This document shows positions 1 to 6,681 of a stretch of 64,000 nt of DNA, one piece after another. The notes beneath the pieces were generated by a model. The model was not told the origin of the DNA and searched no databases. It saw only the letters and a program-made list of their open reading frames with translations. A program made the position numbers and the translations under genes. The stretch covers positions 922,046-986,045 of the forward strand of contig OZ244859.1 of NCBI GenBank assembly GCA_965221015.1. The letters run 5' to 3'. Source of the DNA: an uncultured Pseudohongiella sp. (GTDB lineage: Bacteria > Pseudomonadota > Gammaproteobacteria > Pseudomonadales > Pseudohongiellaceae). Position 1 is the first letter of the stretch. Every line of letters starts with the position of its first letter.

Positions 1-1
1 A

Positions 2-418
2 TTGGGCGCGCTCGACCCGGACAGCATGGAAGTGCGCTACTTTGAAGTCCCCGACAACCGCACCCGCATCCGCCGCCTTGGCATCGACAGCAACGACATC
101 GTCTGGTTCGTCAACTCCTCCATGGGCAAAATCGGCCGGCTCGACCCGGCCACGGGCGAAATCACCCAGTGGGATTCACCCAGCGGGCCGGATTCGCATC
201 CCTACTCCCTGGCGGTGATCGACGACGTAATCTGGTACAACGAATCGGGCAAGCGCCCCGACGCCCTCGTGCGCTTCAATCCCCGCACCGAATCGTTCCA
301 GAGCTGGGCGATCCCCTCGGGCGTCGGCATTGTGCGCCACGTCTGGGTGACCGAAGACAACAACCTGCTCATCCACCAAAGCAGCTCCAACCAAATCGGC
401 CTGGTTAAAATCAACTAG
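2..418 (+). CDS. C-terminal fragment of a beta-propeller protein (Vgb/streptogramin-lyase-like blades). The 5' end lies outside the window.
   Basis: The frame is open from the window edge to TAG at 416-418. Repeated ~40-aa blades show patterns such as 'IGRLDPATGEITQW' and 'DDVIWYNE'. The family call is from motif memory only. Confidence 0.5.
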   Translation: MGALDPDSMEVRYFEVPDNRTRIRRLGIDSNDIVWFVNSSMGKIGRLDPATGEITQWDSPSGPDSHPYSLAVIDDVIWYNESGKRPDALVRFNPRTESFQSWAIPSGVGIVRHVWVTEDNNLLIHQSSSNQIGLVKIN

Positions 419-472
419 GGGCAGGGGAGTGGCCCCGCCCGCCCGCGGACCCGTTCGGAGCCACAGCGCGCT

Positions 473-1075
473 TCATTCCCCGTTAGCCGGATTCTGGGCC
501 AATCTGTCCTCAAGATTGCCGACCCGGGTCTCGACCCGCGCCGTGCGTTCGCGCAAGTCGCTTCTGTCCGCGCGAATCTGGGCCCTTTCCTCCCGCGCCT
601 GCTCGAACCGCTGGTCCATGCGATCTTCGGACTGCTCAATCCGCTGGTCCATGCGATCTTCGGACTGCTCGAACCGCTGGTCCATGCGTTCTTCGAACTG
701 CTCAATCCGCGCGTCCACGCGTTCTTCGGACTGCTCAAACCGCGCGTCCACGCGTTCTTCGGACTGCTCGAATCGCGCGTTCACGCGTTCTTCGAACTGA
801 GCGAACCGCTGGTCCATGCGTTCTTCGAACTTCTCAAACCGCGCGTTCACGCGTTCTTCGGACTGCTCGAAGCGCGCATCCACACTTTCCTCGGACTGCT
901 CGAACCGCGCATCCACGCGTTCTTCGGACAGCTCGAACCGTTCGTACACGCGATCAAACTGACGATTCATGCTGGAATACATCGCGCCCGTCAGCGCGAT
1001 CACACAAACCAGCAACACGTTCGGCGCCGAAGCCTTCGCCATCGCAATTGTCGATTCCAGGTTGGTCTCCATCAC
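473..1075 (-). CDS. Membrane-anchored hendecad (11-residue) repeat protein, paralog 1. It has ~11 repeat units.
   Basis: N-terminal hydrophobic segment APNVLLVCVIALTGAMY, then ERVDARFEQSE-type 11-aa units, then a conserved tail IRAD.SDLRERTARVETRVGNLEDRLA. The ORF-track start is GTG at 1075. A conserved ATG (METNLE) lies 3 nt downstream. Confidence 0.6.
   Translation of the reverse strand: MMETNLESTIAMAKASAPNVLLVCVIALTGAMYSSMNRQFDRVYERFELSEERVDARFEQSEESVDARFEQSEERVNARFEKFEERMDQRFAQFEERVNARFEQSEERVDARFEQSEERVDARIEQFEERMDQRFEQSEDRMDQRIEQSEDRMDQRFEQAREERAQIRADRSDLRERTARVETRVGNLEDRLAQNPANGE
605..967. repeat. 33-bp tandem repeat, 11 units, coding (inside paralog 1)
   Basis: I checked unit boundaries by position at 605, 638, 671 and 704. 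Unit consensus on the + strand is gaaccgcgcgtccacgcgttcttcggactgctc. The last unit is degenerate. Confidence 0.85.
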
Positions 1076-1115
1076 ATTAATCCATTCATTTTCCGATCCG
1101 CCATCTCACACTTCG

Positions 1116-1484
1116 TCAAATGGAGTCTGGGGCCAATCTGCCTTCAAGATTGCTGACCCGGGTCTCGACCCGCGCCGTGCGCTCCCGCAAGTCGCTTATG
1201 TCCGCGCGAATCTGGGCTCTTTCCTCCCGCGCCTGTTCGAACCGCTGGTCCATGCGATCTTCTAACTGTTCAAAGCGCGCGTTCACGCGTTCTTCGGACT
1301 GTTCGAAGCGCGCATCCACGCGTTCTTCGGACTGCTCGAACCGTTCGTACACGCGATCAAACTGACGATTCATGCTGGAATACATCGCGCCCGTCAGCGC
1401 GATCACACAAACCAGCAACACGTTCGGCGCCGAAGCCTTCGCCATCGCAATTGTCGATTCCAGGTTGGTCTCCATCGCTTTCAC
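1116..1484 (-). CDS. Membrane-anchored hendecad repeat protein, paralog 2. It has ~4 repeat units.
   Basis: The N-terminus MKAMETNLESTIAMAKASAPNVLLVCVIALTGAMYSSMNRQFDRVYERFE is identical to that of paralog 1. Four 33-bp units lie at 1239-1370, and the C-terminal tail is the same. The start is GTG at 1484, or ATG at 1475. Confidence 0.6.
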   Translation of the reverse strand: MKAMETNLESTIAMAKASAPNVLLVCVIALTGAMYSSMNRQFDRVYERFEQSEERVDARFEQSEERVNARFEQLEDRMDQRFEQAREERAQIRADISDLRERTARVETRVSNLEGRLAPDSI

Positions 1485-1546
1485 CCCATCATTCCCTCAT
1501 TTCATATCCCATGCCCCCGAAAACCGTGGGGAGCCTGCAGAAAACC

Positions 1547-1576
1547 ATTGTAGAAACGAAAATTCGGCAATGCCAA
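1547..1576 (-). promoter_or_regulatory. Sigma70-like promoter candidate for paralog 2 (TTGGCA-N18-TACAAT)
   Basis: The -35 ttggca is the reverse complement of 1571-1576. The -10 tacaat is the reverse complement of 1547-1552. The spacer is 18 nt. The same arrangement is conserved upstream of paralog 3. Confidence 0.45.
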
Positions 1577-1625
1577 GTTTTCGGCGAAAATAATCGATGG
1601 CCGATGCGACCCTCGCCCCACAAAT

Positions 1626-2075
1626 TCACTCTCCGTTGACCGGTATCTGGGCCAATCTGTCCTCAAGATTGCCGACCCGGGTCTCGACCCGCGCGGTGCG
1701 CTCCCGCAAATCGCTTATGTCCGCGCGAATCTGAGCCCTTTCCTCCCGCGCCTGCGCGAGTTGCTGTTCGATACGTTCGAAGCGCTCGTCGATACGCGCG
1801 AATTGCGAGTTGATGCGCTCGAACTCCGCGTCCATGCGCGCGAACCCCGCGTCCATGCGCGCGTCCATTCGGTCGAGCCGCTGATCAATCTGCTCGATCC
1901 GGCGGTCCATCCGCTCTTCCAAACGCTCGAACCGTTCGTCCATGCTGTCAAACTGCCGATTCATGCTTGAATACATCGCGCCCGTCAGCGCGATCACACA
2001 AACCAGCAACACATTCGGCGCCGATGCCTTCGCCATCGCAATCGTCGTTTCCAATTTGGTCTCCATCGCTTTCAT
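1626..2075 (-). CDS. Membrane-anchored hendecad repeat protein, paralog 3. Its repeats are more diverged.
   Basis: I trimmed the 235-aa track ORF (1626..2333) to the ATG at 2075, giving MKAMETKLETTIAMAKAS..., because this aligns with the starts of paralogs 1 and 2. The repeats are MDERFERLEERMDRRIEQIDQRLDRMDARMD..., with the same C-terminal tail. Confidence 0.6.
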   Translation of the reverse strand: MKAMETKLETTIAMAKASAPNVLLVCVIALTGAMYSSMNRQFDSMDERFERLEERMDRRIEQIDQRLDRMDARMDAGFARMDAEFERINSQFARIDERFERIEQQLAQAREERAQIRADISDLRERTARVETRVGNLEDRLAQIPVNGE

Positions 2076-2130
2076 TCCGTCATTCCATATCCCGCGCCCC
2101 CGAAAACCGTGGGGGAGCCCACTGAAAACC

Positions 2131-2160
2131 AGTATAGAAACGCAATTGAGGCAATGCCAA
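2131..2160 (-). promoter_or_regulatory. Sigma70-like promoter candidate for paralog 3 (TTGGCA-N18-TATACT)
   Basis: The -35 is the reverse complement of 2155-2160. The -10 is the reverse complement of 2131-2136. The spacer is 18 nt. The downstream leader is homologous to that of paralog 2. Confidence 0.45.
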
Positions 2161-2311
2161 ATTTTCGGCGAAATTAATTCATGGCCGCCGAGATTTCGCG
2201 CGAAACGCCGCCCGCGCCAAGCAGTTCTTGACAATGACGCGGCCAAAGTCCATTTTTGTCGCCCCAAAGGCAATCCAACCGCAACATTCTCCAGATTCCG
2301 CGAGGTGTACG

Positions 2312-3481
2312 ATGAAAAAGACCTGTCCAACAAGCGTCACAGCCAGCTTCATGGCCAAGGCCGGCACCGCGGCCATGCTCTCATCCCTGCTCGCCGCGAC
2401 AGCCCTGGCCCAGCCGCCACGGCCCGGCGCCGTATATCCGGCGGCCCACGCCGGCCAGCAGCCGGTCAACAATCTGCCCAACCCCTATGAGACCCAGCGC
2501 GATTTCGGCACCTTGCCCGACGGCCGCATCTGGGGATCGGTAAGCGCCGTCAACATCGACATAGACGGCGTCCACGTCTGGGCCGGCGACCGTTGCGGCA
2601 CCAACTCCTGCGCGACTTCGAGCGTGGACCCGATCGTCAAGCTCGACCCCAACGGCCGCGTCGTGCAGTCCTTCGGCGGCGGCCTCATCATCTGGCCCCA
2701 CGGCATCGACGTCGACAGCGAAGGCAATGTCTGGATCGCCGACGCGCGCCTGGCCAACGAAAACGAGCTGGCGGAAAATCCCGCCGCGGCCAACCACGGC
2801 AGCGCGGTGCTTAAATTCAGCCCCGATGGCGAGTTGCTGATGACCCTCGGCACCCCCGGCGAAATGGGCGACCCGCCAACGCATTTCACCGAGCCCAACG
2901 ACGTGCTGGTGGCGCCCAACGGCAACATCTTCGTGGCCGAAACCCACAGCGCCCAATTCCAGAACGAGCCCGGCCCCAACGCCAAGAGCCGCATCTCGAT
3001 CTTCGCTCCCGACGGCAGCTTCATCAAAAGCTTCGGCCAATGGGGCTTCGAAGACGGCGAGTTCCGTTCCCCCCATTCCCTGGCGATGGACTCCCAGGGC
3101 CGCCTGTTCGTGGCCGACCGCGGCAACAACCGCATCCAGATTTTCGACCAGGAAGGCGAACATCTGGACACCTGGTACCAGTTCAGCCGCATCAGCGGCA
3201 TCTACATCGACCGCGGCAACGACATGCTGTACGCGATCGATTCCGAGTCCGACCCGAACTACAACCCAGGCGGCTGGCGCAAGGGCCTGCGCGTGGGCAA
3301 CGCGCGCAACGGCCAGGTGCTGTATTTTGTGCCCGAGCATGTTTCCGAACGGTCCTCGGGCATGGGCGGAACCGGCTCGATGGGTGAGGGCGTCACCGTC
3401 GACCGCGACGGCAACGTCTACGCCGGCGAAGTCGGCCCAATCCGCGGCATGACCAAATTCGTGCCCAGGCTCAGCCCCTGA
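2312..3481 (+). CDS. Secreted NHL-repeat / six-bladed beta-propeller protein
   Basis: The start was moved to ATG 2312 (MKKTCPTSV...LLAATALAQ, signal-like). NHL-type blades are visible: 'PHGIDVDSEGNVWIAD', 'PNDVLVAPNGNIFVAE', 'PHSLAMDSQGRLFVADRGNNRIQIF', 'GVTVDRDGNVYAGE'. Confidence 0.75.
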   Translation: MKKTCPTSVTASFMAKAGTAAMLSSLLAATALAQPPRPGAVYPAAHAGQQPVNNLPNPYETQRDFGTLPDGRIWGSVSAVNIDIDGVHVWAGDRCGTNSCATSSVDPIVKLDPNGRVVQSFGGGLIIWPHGIDVDSEGNVWIADARLANENELAENPAAANHGSAVLKFSPDGELLMTLGTPGEMGDPPTHFTEPNDVLVAPNGNIFVAETHSAQFQNEPGPNAKSRISIFAPDGSFIKSFGQWGFEDGEFRSPHSLAMDSQGRLFVADRGNNRIQIFDQEGEHLDTWYQFSRISGIYIDRGNDMLYAIDSESDPNYNPGGWRKGLRVGNARNGQVLYFVPEHVSERSSGMGGTGSMGEGVTVDRDGNVYAGEVGPIRGMTKFVPRLSP

Positions 3482-4956: not shown

Positions 4957-6681
4957 TCAATTGCGCGCGTCCGCGCTCGCCTCGCGCGCTTCCTTGAACT
5001 CGTTGCCTTCGTACCAGGCCGGCCAGCTGGAACCGTTCGCCAACCGCCGGCCGACTTCGAAATACAGCATCACGTCTTCCGCCGCGCCGCTGAGATCCCA
5101 TTCCGGGTCGTACTCGTCGCCGGGGGCGTGGTAGCGGTTGGCGACGTAGTCCTCGCTTCGTTCCACGCCCCAGGCATTGCCGTATTCGCGGCTGTCCGTG
5201 CCGCCTTCGGCGTACAGCCCGGGTACCCCGGCGCGGGCGAACATGAAATGGTCCGAGCGGTAATAAAATCCGCGCTCCGGCGTCGGTTCCGGGACGATGA
5301 CGCGATCCTGGGCCGCGGCCGCCTCGGCAAGATAATCTTCCAGCTCGCTGGCGCCATAGCCGATCACCACCACATCGCGCACCCGGCCCCAGGTGTTCAA
5401 GGCGTCCATATTGATGTTCGCCACCGTGGTTTCCAGCGGATACACCGGATGCTCCACATACCATTGCGAACCCAGCAGGCCCGACTCTTCCGCCGTCACC
5501 GCCAGAAAGACCACGCTGCGCTCCGGCGGCGCCGGCTGCGCCAGAAACAACTCGGCCAGGGCGAGCAACGCGCCGGTGCCCGTGGCGTTGTCCACCGCGC
5601 CGTTCCAGATGTTGTCGCCTTCCATGTCGGCCACCATGCCGAGATGGTCCCAGTGCGCGGTGTAAACAATGGCTTCTTCCGGCCGCGAAGCGCCGGGAAT
5701 CGCGGCGATCACATTGTGCGAACTTGAGCCGCGCACCGCGGTTTCCAGCGCCATGCTGGCGCGAATATCGCCCAGCGGCACGGCGCTGAAGCCCGGCGCC
5801 GCCGCTTGCGCCTTCATTTCCGCGTAATCCATTCCGGCCGCCGCGAACAGCGCGTTCGCGGTCTCCAGCGTGAGCCAGCCCTCGATGGGGGCGAGATGCG
5901 CGTTGTCGTTCTCCGCCGCCAGCGTGATTTGCGGGCCGGACCAGCTATTGTCCACCACGTCCCAGCCGTAGCCCGCCGGCCCCGTCTCGTGCACGATCAA
6001 AATGCCCGCCGCGCCTTGGCGCGCCGCTTCCTCGAACTTGTACATCCAGCGGCCATACCAGGTCATCGCGTTGCCGTTGAACAGCGCCGGGTCCTGGGTG
6101 GCGTAGCCCGGGTCGTTCACCAGCACCACAACCGTCTTGCCCGTGGCATCCACCTCCGCATAATCGTTCCAGCCGCGCTCCGGCGCGTTGATGCCATAGC
6201 CGACGAAAACCACTTCGCTGTCTTCCACCACAATCGGCGAGTTGTGGTGGCGGCTGCCAATCACCATTTCCGTTTTGTACGCGGGGCTGGCGTCGAATGC
6301 GCCGCTGAATTGCAGCACCGGCGTCGAAGTGGCGGTGATTTCCACCACATCCACCTGCTGCGTGTACGCCTCGCCATTGCCCGGCCCCACGCCAAGGGCG
6401 CTGAACTGCTCCGTCAAATACGCAATCGTGCGCCGCCCGCCGGCAGTGGCCGGCGCGCGCCCTTCAAACGCATCCGAGGCAAGCACCGCCGTATGCTCAT
6501 GCAGCACCTGTGCAATCCGCTCCAGCCCAACCGCCGGCGCCGCCGCGCCTTCCACCAAAGCCGCACCCGCCGCCTCCGGCGCCGCCACGCTCCCCATCGC
6601 AGGCGCACTGTCCACCCCCGATTCCCCGCAAGCGGCCAACAAAAGCAAAACCCCCAACACCCCCACCAACCGAGCTTTCAT
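4957..6681 (-). CDS. M28-family metallopeptidase (aminopeptidase) with PA domain; probable lipoprotein
   Basis: The start was trimmed to ATG 6681 (MKARLVGVLGVLLLLAACGE, a lipobox-like LAAC). M28 signatures are 'HWDHLGM', 'NGAVDNATGTGALLALAE' and 'FLAVTAEESGLLGSQ'. Confidence 0.8.
   Translation of the reverse strand: MKARLVGVLGVLLLLAACGESGVDSAPAMGSVAAPEAAGAALVEGAAAPAVGLERIAQVLHEHTAVLASDAFEGRAPATAGGRRTIAYLTEQFSALGVGPGNGEAYTQQVDVVEITATSTPVLQFSGAFDASPAYKTEMVIGSRHHNSPIVVEDSEVVFVGYGINAPERGWNDYAEVDATGKTVVVLVNDPGYATQDPALFNGNAMTWYGRWMYKFEEAARQGAAGILIVHETGPAGYGWDVVDNSWSGPQITLAAENDNAHLAPIEGWLTLETANALFAAAGMDYAEMKAQAAAPGFSAVPLGDIRASMALETAVRGSSSHNVIAAIPGASRPEEAIVYTAHWDHLGMVADMEGDNIWNGAVDNATGTGALLALAELFLAQPAPPERSVVFLAVTAEESGLLGSQWYVEHPVYPLETTVANINMDALNTWGRVRDVVVIGYGASELEDYLAEAAAAQDRVIVPEPTPERGFYYRSDHFMFARAGVPGLYAEGGTDSREYGNAWGVERSEDYVANRYHAPGDEYDPEWDLSGAAEDVMLYFEVGRRLANGSSWPAWYEGNEFKEAREASADARN

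Follow-up and report, generated by a model that had tools for sequence, protein, structure and literature searches.

In a window of 64,000 nucleotides (nt) from an uncultured marine Pseudohongiella (contig OZ244859.1, positions 922,046 to 986,045, in a 3.4-Mb single-contig genome), three tandem genes encode small, membrane-anchored proteins that share both ends and differ in the repeats between them. We interpret the products as parallel, probably trimeric coiled-coil stalks with the N-terminus outside and the C-terminus inside the cell (N-out/C-in), whose length would set the distance between a conserved tip and the membrane; the probability of this reading is put at roughly 60%. Each would be a small single-pass inner-membrane protein with a 13-residue acidic N-tail and one transmembrane helix, which would run unbroken into a coiled-coil stalk ending about 4-7 residues before the C-terminus, with no globular head. 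The stalk would be a cassette of in-frame tandem repeats, and the only conserved parts would be the anchor and the last five heptads, which carry two in-register R-h-x-x-h-E motifs (RTARVE and RVGNLE). The C-terminal segment would then nucleate a parallel homotrimer and specify this oligomeric state, the repeats would be a spacer setting the distance of the conserved tip from the membrane, and a 69-amino-acid (aa) relative with no repeats would hold its tip at the membrane surface.

A preliminary description made from the letters alone had placed three tandem paralogs in 473-2075. The listing of open reading frames (ORFs) bore this out and put them on the minus strand, and all three frames were intact. 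The genes are numbered here as paralogs 1 to 3, and their parts, in window coordinates, are as follows.

473-1072, minus strand: coding sequence of paralog 1, 199 aa from the likely ATG at 1072 (the ORF listing begins at GTG 1075, one codon earlier).
1116-1475, minus strand: coding sequence of paralog 2, 119 aa from ATG 1475, with 4 hendecads.
1626-2066, minus strand: coding sequence of paralog 3, 146 aa from ATG 2066 (149 aa with ATG 2075), with 2 hendecads and 6 heptads.
974-1030, minus strand: transmembrane helix of paralog 1 (residues ~15-33, SAPNVLLVCVIALTGAMYS), read directly from the sequence.
1377-1433, minus strand: transmembrane helix of paralog 2, the same segment as in paralog 1.
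1968-2024, minus strand: transmembrane helix of paralog 3, the same segment as in paralog 1.
599-952, minus strand: 33-bp array of paralog 1, 11 hendecads with the consensus ERVDARFEQSE, residues 40-160 (Tandem Repeats Finder, TRF: 10.7 copies, 84% matches, score 414).
1233-1355, minus strand: 33-bp array of paralog 2, 4 hendecads (TRF, 3.7 copies).
1754-1916, minus strand: region of 21- and 42-bp repeats in paralog 3 (TRF), heptads RMDAxFA / RIDERFE.
497-601, minus strand: conserved C-terminal heptad segment of paralog 1 (QAREERAQIRADRSDLRERTARVETRVGNLEDRLA), 35 residues, with RTARVE and RVGNLE 7 residues apart.
1131-1235, minus strand: the equivalent segment of paralog 2.
1650-1754, minus strand: the equivalent segment of paralog 3.

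The ATG of METNLE or METKLE was taken as the start because the orthologs start with MEANLE directly after a GGAGG box. From this start, all three N-termini read ME-T-x-LE-x-TIAMAKASAPNVLLVCVIALTGAMYSSMNRQFD, a 13-residue tail followed by one hydrophobic helix, so that the N-terminal anchor that had been described was present in every copy. The described near-identity of the N-termini also held: residues 1-47 were the same in paralogs 1 and 2, and paralog 3 differed by N4K and S7T within residues 1-40. Likewise, the common C-terminus, QAREERAQIRADxSDLRERTARVETRVxNLExRLA, was found in all three paralogs, followed by 4-7 further residues.

The 11-residue unit of the preliminary description was correct, as E-R-(V/M)-D-(A/Q)-R-(F/I)-E-Q-(S/F)-E, for paralog 1 (11 units) and paralog 2 (4 units). 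The roughly seven units counted for paralog 3 did not stand, since this protein consists of 2 hendecads and 6 heptads and only 21- and 42-bp periods were returned by TRF; when the protein was cut into units, the heptads included RMDAGFA, RMDAEFE, RINSQFA and RIDERFE. V/M at position 3 and F/I at position 7 were confirmed as hydrophobic positions, but position 10, which had been listed as sometimes hydrophobic, is usually small and polar (in paralog 1, Ser in 7, Phe in 3 and Ala in 1 of the 11 units). At the nucleotide level the 33-bp units were 76-94% identical, the closest pair agreeing at 31 of 33 bases and most pairs at 25-30 of 33. As every unit differs from every other, the view that perfect DNA repeats imply ongoing expansion was overstated. 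In formal terms, each hendecad amounts to a heptad with 4 residues added (ERVDARF+EQSE), that is, a stutter in every unit, and a stutter per unit moves a coiled coil from left-handed to slightly right-handed (PMC4786415). The predicted supercoil is accordingly moved by the hendecads from left-handed (3.5 residues per turn) to nearly straight or slightly right-handed (3.67 residues per turn).

Periodicity was analyzed formally on the hydrophobicity of the repeats. In paralog 1 the power was 134.7 at 3.67 residues per turn and 5.1 at 3.50, with a shuffle maximum of 47.8 +/- 12.8; the 11/5 harmonic of the spectrum was stronger still, which is expected for an exact repeat. The hendecad periodicity that had been noticed by eye was thus upheld above shuffles, with a hendecad core in paralogs 1 and 2. 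The power maximum of paralog 3 lay at 3.5-3.6 residues per turn, as did the peak of the orthologs (which with the three paralogs make up family A) and of family B, a set of distant paralogs in the same genome. Only paralogs 1 and 2 had the pattern of a hendecad (11/3) coiled coil, with its core positions a, d/e and h taken by V/M at 3, F/I at 7 and S/F/A at 10, and paralog 3 was mostly heptads. On a hendecad wheel, V3, F7 and S10 fell within 65 degrees, flanked by R2 and R6 on one side and by D4 and E11 on the other. Such a stripe with opposite charged flanks fits a parallel homo-oligomeric coiled coil with salt bridges between helices.

The same 11-residue periodicity is compatible with the other structure that had been suggested, an amphipathic helix like those of apolipoproteins, alpha-synuclein, LEA proteins or perilipins, kept flat on the lipid surface by its anchor and serving in membrane protection or curvature. 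The exact 3.67 residues per turn, a hydrophobic moment of 0.43 at 98 degrees over the first ~50 stalk residues of paralog 1, and the best Pfam match of paralog 1, Apolipoprotein A1/A4/E (PF01442; E 3.3e-10, residues 50-182), all agree with such a helix. However, the match reached 40.4 bits against a gathering cutoff of 90 bits; paralog 2 reached 21.8 bits, and the family was outside the best 25 matches of paralog 3. Class A lipid-surface helices were taken to have an apolar face of at least ~1/3 of positions, a Lys interface and Pro-punctuated 22-residue units, but the repeats have 2-3 of 11 positions apolar within the 65-degree stripe, one Arg flank and one Asp/Glu flank in place of a Lys interface, and no Pro. 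Large apolar residues make up ~25% of the stalk and mean hydrophobicity is about -0.5, which speaks against a helix on lipid. In addition, the plain heptads of the orthologs, paralog 3 and family B cannot hold one face on a flat surface, and the conserved C-terminal segment has the a/d heptad pattern of a canonical coil. On these grounds a lipid-surface helix is regarded as quite improbable.

The coiled-coil register was followed by hand in paralog 1 from the last hendecad into the C-terminal segment, and it was unbroken: the a/d positions were M152, F156, A159, R163, I166, position 170, L173, T177, V180, V184, L187 and L191. Position 170 is Ile in paralogs 2 and 3 and Arg in paralog 1. AlphaFold2 monomer models showed one continuous helix for paralog 2 (residues 2-114, pLDDT 84) and for paralog 1 (residues 3-193, pLDDT 90). 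Taking 0.148 nm per residue of extramembrane helix, the rods were estimated at 11.7 nm for paralog 2 (residues 37-115), 15.2 nm for paralog 3 (37-139) and ~23 nm for paralog 1 (37-192), and at 7.8-14.1 nm for the orthologs. Both the single-helix models of paralogs 1 and 2 and these lengths of ~12, 15 and 23 nm agree with the membrane-tethered rods of differing length that had been proposed.

The most conserved residues of the family lie in the tip, as Arg-x-Ala-Arg-Val-Glu, for which the window paralogs have RTARVE and the orthologs, like family B, have RMARVE. Exactly 7 residues past this motif stands RVGNLE or RVSNLE, and the orthologs add RMDQIE another 7 residues on. When Arg(g)-h(a)-x-x-h(d)-Glu(e) lies in a trigger site, it specifies coiled coils that are parallel and three-stranded (PMC3653964). 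The tip has Arg at g and Glu at e, and RVGNLE and RVSNLE fit Arg(g)-[ILVM](a)-x-x-[LIV](d)-Glu(e) fully; in these positions, and in motifs spaced 7 residues apart, the tip resembles the R-hxxhE trimers coronin-1, cc-beta, engineered GCN4 and cortexillin (PMC3653964). These tandem in-register motifs make the C-terminal tip the probable nucleation site of a parallel trimer. In a profile search of the Protein Data Bank the best matches, which were weak, were likewise to trimeric coiled coils, SadA (2yo3) and reovirus sigma-1 (6gao).

The orientation in the membrane was judged from the charges around the helix. Ahead of the helix is a short N-tail with a net acidic charge (E2, E6, K13), and behind the helix come Arg residues; counted by eye, the N-flank of the window paralogs has 1 Lys or Arg (K+R) and the C-flank 3. 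Among the best 150 matches to a profile of families A and B, the 25 small N-anchored proteins averaged 0.72 K+R in the flank before the helix and 3.44 in the flank after it, and in 22 of the 25 the C-flank had the higher count. By the positive-inside rule, this excess past the helix puts the rod on the cytoplasmic face (N-out/C-in), which we consider likely.

Several points weigh against a cytoplasmic trimer. The R-hxxhE motif is not fully trimer-specific, as certain dimers and antiparallel trimers have it too (PMC3653964), and the first motif of the window paralogs, RTARVE, differs from the known trimers in having Thr at h(a), outside the canonical I/L/V/M. The Protein Data Bank matches are weak, generic similarities of the coiled-coil type. 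The K+R count of the C-flank is inflated by the Arg richness of the stalk itself, and in family B the RR ahead of the membrane helix and the Pro-rich C-terminal tail would suit the periplasm.

The last point leads to the opposite orientation (N-in/C-out), in which the proteins would be periplasmic rods, either a fusion or bridging component like a phage i-spanin or an envelope-distance spacer like Lpp. Rod lengths of 8-23 nm match the scale of the periplasm, and family B not only has the RR before its helix but also a Pro-rich tail ending ...PVACL. Furthermore, paralog 2, alone of the three, gave Rz-like spanin matches in PHROGs over the membrane helix and coil, namely phrog_312 (29 bits, E 1.6e-6), phrog_739 (21 bits) and phrog_214 (18 bits); PHROGs comes without curated cutoffs, and these weak scores are at the level of any membrane helix plus coil. 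An i-spanin such as lambda Rz does have an N-terminal membrane helix followed by a charged coiled coil, and a similar size. However, the locus has three tandem copies, and its surroundings include neither a partner outer-membrane spanin nor a holin, an endolysin, a lysis cassette or any prophage context; a Vgb_lyase-like, NHL, NupC-type and M28 context is kept between species. The charge distribution, with a net acidic N-tail holding a single Lys and with Arg after the helix, favours a cytoplasmic rod, and relatives of family B do not retain its Cys. A periplasmic rod is therefore unlikely, and the cytoplasmic, probably trimeric stalk is preferred.

Selection was measured on the alignable ends of the genes (40 N-terminal and 34 C-terminal codons). 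Paralogs 1 and 2 differed by a dS of 0.08, with a dN/dS of 0.23. Paralog 3 differed from either by a dS of 0.27 and a dN of 0.02 (12 synonymous and 3-4 non-synonymous differences), with a dN/dS of 0.07-0.09, so that all paralog pairs fell between 0.07 and 0.23. Between the window paralogs and the orthologs of four other species, dS was >1 and dN/dS was 0.13-0.18. By this pattern of substitution the three copies are real, selected genes, and none looks decaying.

The same data bear on the suspicion that two of the copies are decaying duplicates of a single functional one, that the repeats are non-coding, or that the real genes are on the opposite strand. No separate promoter precedes paralog 1, and long ORFs run antisense to the genes, for example at 429-800 on the plus strand. 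However, all three frames are intact, the conserved ends of paralog 3 are under constraint relative to paralogs 1 and 2 (dN/dS 0.07-0.09), the orthologs retain the minus-strand frame at dS >1, and paralog 1 lies in an operon-like position 43 nt behind paralog 2. The antisense ORFs (429-800, 816-962, 1120-1365 and 1761-1970, plus strand), which are long and have a high content of Ser, Arg and Cys, merely mirror the repeat arrays; they are a gene-caller trap, not genes. This explanation is very improbable.

Comparison between genomes showed that the stalk varies in length between conserved ends. When 185,579 species genomes were scanned with a pattern, family A turned up in just four besides the window's own, all labelled uncultured Pseudohongiella or Pseudomonadales metagenome-assembled genomes with complete chromosomes, and full-length profile matches identified the same four among 132 other genus genomes (5 of 133 with the window's own). 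Several complete genus genomes had no family A gene in the profile search; a large number of the genus genomes are in fragments, and assembly frequently breaks down over repeats, so for these 'not found' is weaker than 'absent'. The orthologs are single-copy and built of plain heptads, ERIDQQF or ERVDQQF, in 2, 3, 4 or 9 copies, so that the number of repeats does differ from species to species. The triplication and the hendecad unit were seen in the window's own genome only. The genomic context is conserved: the orthologs are syntenic, and the locus adjoins a Vgb_lyase-like beta-propeller gene, with genes for an NHL protein, a NupC-type transporter and an M28 peptidase close by. In one ortholog-bearing genome, an 80-aa ORF (L020:6330-6572, plus strand) overlaps the end of the ortholog; it has no Pfam match and no counterpart in the window.

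Another relative has the two ends without the repeats. The 69-aa gene is at 718,998-719,207 of the same genome, and in its product, MDGQIIATIAVAIPVLGFLWTIHRDVSGLRERIARMEGLI..., the shared motif D-h-x-x-LRERxARxE comes straight after a membrane helix. The helix is joined directly to DVSGLRERIARMEGLI, which makes the protein a zero-repeat relative of the three paralogs. Its homologues, likewise 69 aa long, form 17 unnamed clusters with 65-75% identity, in which TM-HRDVSGLRERMARVEGLIEG is almost invariant. Since this relative keeps the anchor and the tip motif, the conserved module of the group is the anchor plus D-h-x-x-LRERxARxE, and the repeats are a variable-length insert between the two.

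Family B comprises 5 intact members and 1 truncated member, at 1327858-1335508 and 2945265-2947047 of the genome. Its members have an N-terminal membrane helix and ARIDQVD heptads and end in RVENRLERIDxQLYDLNGRMARVETGVLGYEPP. The ending reads ...DLNGRMARVETGVLGYEPP, and 3 members add the Pro-rich tail finishing PVACL. When families A and B were aligned, the invariant columns were D-L-x-x-R-x-A-R-V-E-T-x-V. The neighbours of family B are toxin-antitoxin, restriction, transposase and integrase genes, in this genome and in two others; with PIN, antitoxin, HsdR and ImmA-like genes around it, the region looks like a genomic island. A HMMER search with the profile of both families returned 10,257 proteins at E <= 1e-3, nearly all of them repeat-only matches. 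The best 150 matches included, besides the 25 small N-anchored proteins, 11 C-anchored ones, and only 4-5 were full-length, all family B-like.

The known lengths thus run from 0 repeats (the 69-aa gene) through 2-9 heptads (the orthologs) to 4 hendecads, a mixed array and 11 hendecads in the window's own genome. Because a conserved anchor, a variable stalk, a conserved tip and a zero-repeat relative occur together, a role as spacer or 'ruler' is the most economical, and we infer that the repeats may serve in this way. A bolder proposal, which is doubtful at present, is that the proteins form a natural length series on one scaffold with a common anchor, promoter type and DLRERxARVE tip, true spacers that would hold a trimeric docking tip at fixed distances of 0 to ~23 nm from the inner face of the membrane, and a branch of a very widespread class of bacterial membrane-anchored repeat rods. 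For coiled-coil research the group offers a natural experiment, with near-identical anchors and tips on heptad, mixed or hendecad stalks in recent paralogs (dS 0.08-0.27). For microbiology it would add an N-anchored, head-less branch to the small membrane-anchored repeat rods, and should the conserved tip have a binding partner, its distance from the membrane could be tuned in a genetically simple way through stalk length. No new mechanism is demonstrated, and the family is narrow and restricted to the genus (5 of 133 genus genomes).

The earlier statement that no family could be assigned was sustained by searches of Pfam, NCBIfam, PADLOC and PHROGs, all of which gave sub-threshold matches of the coiled-coil type only. 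Besides Apolipoprotein A1/A4/E, DUF1664 and the other Pfam matches were all below cutoff. Haemolysin XhlA (PF10779, cutoff 34.7 bits) was matched at 23.1 bits by paralog 3 and at 15.4 bits by paralog 1, and XhlA is anchored C-terminally whereas the paralogs are anchored N-terminally. NCBIfam returned only fragments of SMC, ZorA and DrmD coiled coils, and PADLOC, which covers anti-phage defence proteins, only coiled-coil parts of ZorA, JetC, LmuB and DrmD, at <= 32 bits. The remaining PHROGs matches were to families of unknown function. A word-indexed protein search with paralog 3 gave 5 weak matches with only RIDERFE heptads in common, and relatives in public sources were unnamed or called 'hypothetical protein'. 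A plasmid collection gave no match, a phage collection only repeat-level matches to hypothetical proteins, and the Protein Data Bank profile search only generic coiled-coil matches.

Parts of this layout are seen in known proteins. Subunit b of the F-type ATP synthase has an N-terminal membrane helix (N-out/C-in), ~150 residues and a right-handed coiled coil with hendecad periodicity, and the paralogs are like it in the position of the helix, in size and in the long hendecad helix. However, they have no Pfam ATP-synt_B match and lie outside an atp operon, their stalks are near-identical repeats of variable length, their orthologs have heptads, and a trimer rather than a dimer is predicted. The Bdr proteins of Borrelia (KID-repeat, PF02524) are multi-copy, small, inner-membrane-anchored helical paralogs whose central short tandem repeats vary in number. 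Unlike the window proteins, they are C-terminally anchored and plasmid-encoded and their repeat has a KID kinase-like motif; no Pfam match to them was found here. Members of DUF1640/CCDC90 (PF07798; MCUR1, CCDC90B and prokaryotic members) are also small single-pass membrane proteins that are mainly coiled-coil stalk, and the prokaryotic stalks are often repeat-built. But DUF1640 proteins are anchored C-terminally, whereas the paralogs have their membrane helix at ~15-33, no head domain and, as conserved element, a C-terminal DLRERxARVE segment; they also lack the beta-layer motif [aliphatic]-A-T-K-x-[DE] of DUF1640/CCDC90 (PMC4786415). PF07798 was absent from all 21 Pfam matches of paralog 1 (E <= 1) and from the best 25 of paralogs 2 and 3. 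Two tail-anchored proteins of the genome, at 863264-863716 (plus strand) and 5045-5779 (minus strand), have an N-terminal head, RFEKID/RFEKVD heptads and a C-terminal membrane helix; by eye this is a DUF1640-like layout, but they gave no Pfam DUF1640 match at E <= 1e-5.

The regulatory features upstream of the genes are listed below.

1073-1115, minus strand: gap of 43 nt between paralog 2 and paralog 1, with no promoter- or terminator-like site by scan and upstream alignment.
1547-1576, minus strand: sigma-70-like promoter of paralog 2, TTGGCA, 18-nt spacer, TACAAT (10 of 12 consensus matches).
1578-1590, minus strand: palindrome TTTTCGCCGAAAA, a candidate regulator site immediately upstream of the paralog 2 -35 hexamer.
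2131-2160, minus strand: sigma-70-like promoter of paralog 3, TTGGCA, 18-nt spacer, TATACT (10 of 12 consensus matches).
2161-2173, minus strand: palindrome ATTTCGCCGAAAT, related to TTTTCGCCGAAAA, ahead of the paralog 3 promoter.

Paralog 1 is probably co-transcribed with paralog 2, because it lies so closely behind that gene without a promoter of its own. The promoters of paralogs 2 and 3 are conserved with each other; the upstream sequence of the ortholog aligns too, but its -35 region differs. A sigma-54 reading of TTGGCA...TTGC was rejected by eye, as the spacing is wrong and a sigma-70-type scan fits. Rfam gave no match in window positions 1-3000. A structured leader RNA is unsupported, because folding of the leaders was not more stable than that of shuffles (z = -0.24, +0.43 and -1.52) and no common structure was found.

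The extended motif CGAAAAnTTGGCATTGC occurs at exactly three sites in the genome, upstream of paralog 2, paralog 3 and the 69-aa gene, respectively. The promoter of the 69-aa gene reads TTTTCGCCGAAAAcTTGGCATTGC...CATACT (region 718917-719207), and the gene lies ~90 nt past a nitrile hydratase operon. The family B promoter consists of TTGGAA, an 18-nt spacer and TAGAAT, with a perfect palindrome, GGAAACCGnnCGGTTTCC, inside the spacer; the sequence conserved upstream of the family B genes had been considered as an integron attC site, but it is this promoter together with a ribosome-binding site. Two NHL-repeat paralogs, at window positions 2228-3481 (plus strand) and genome positions 720280-721464 (minus strand), are 43% identical over 337 aa, and they adjoin the three-gene locus and the 69-aa gene, respectively. 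The pair may have been left by an old segmental duplication, or its placing may be a coincidence.

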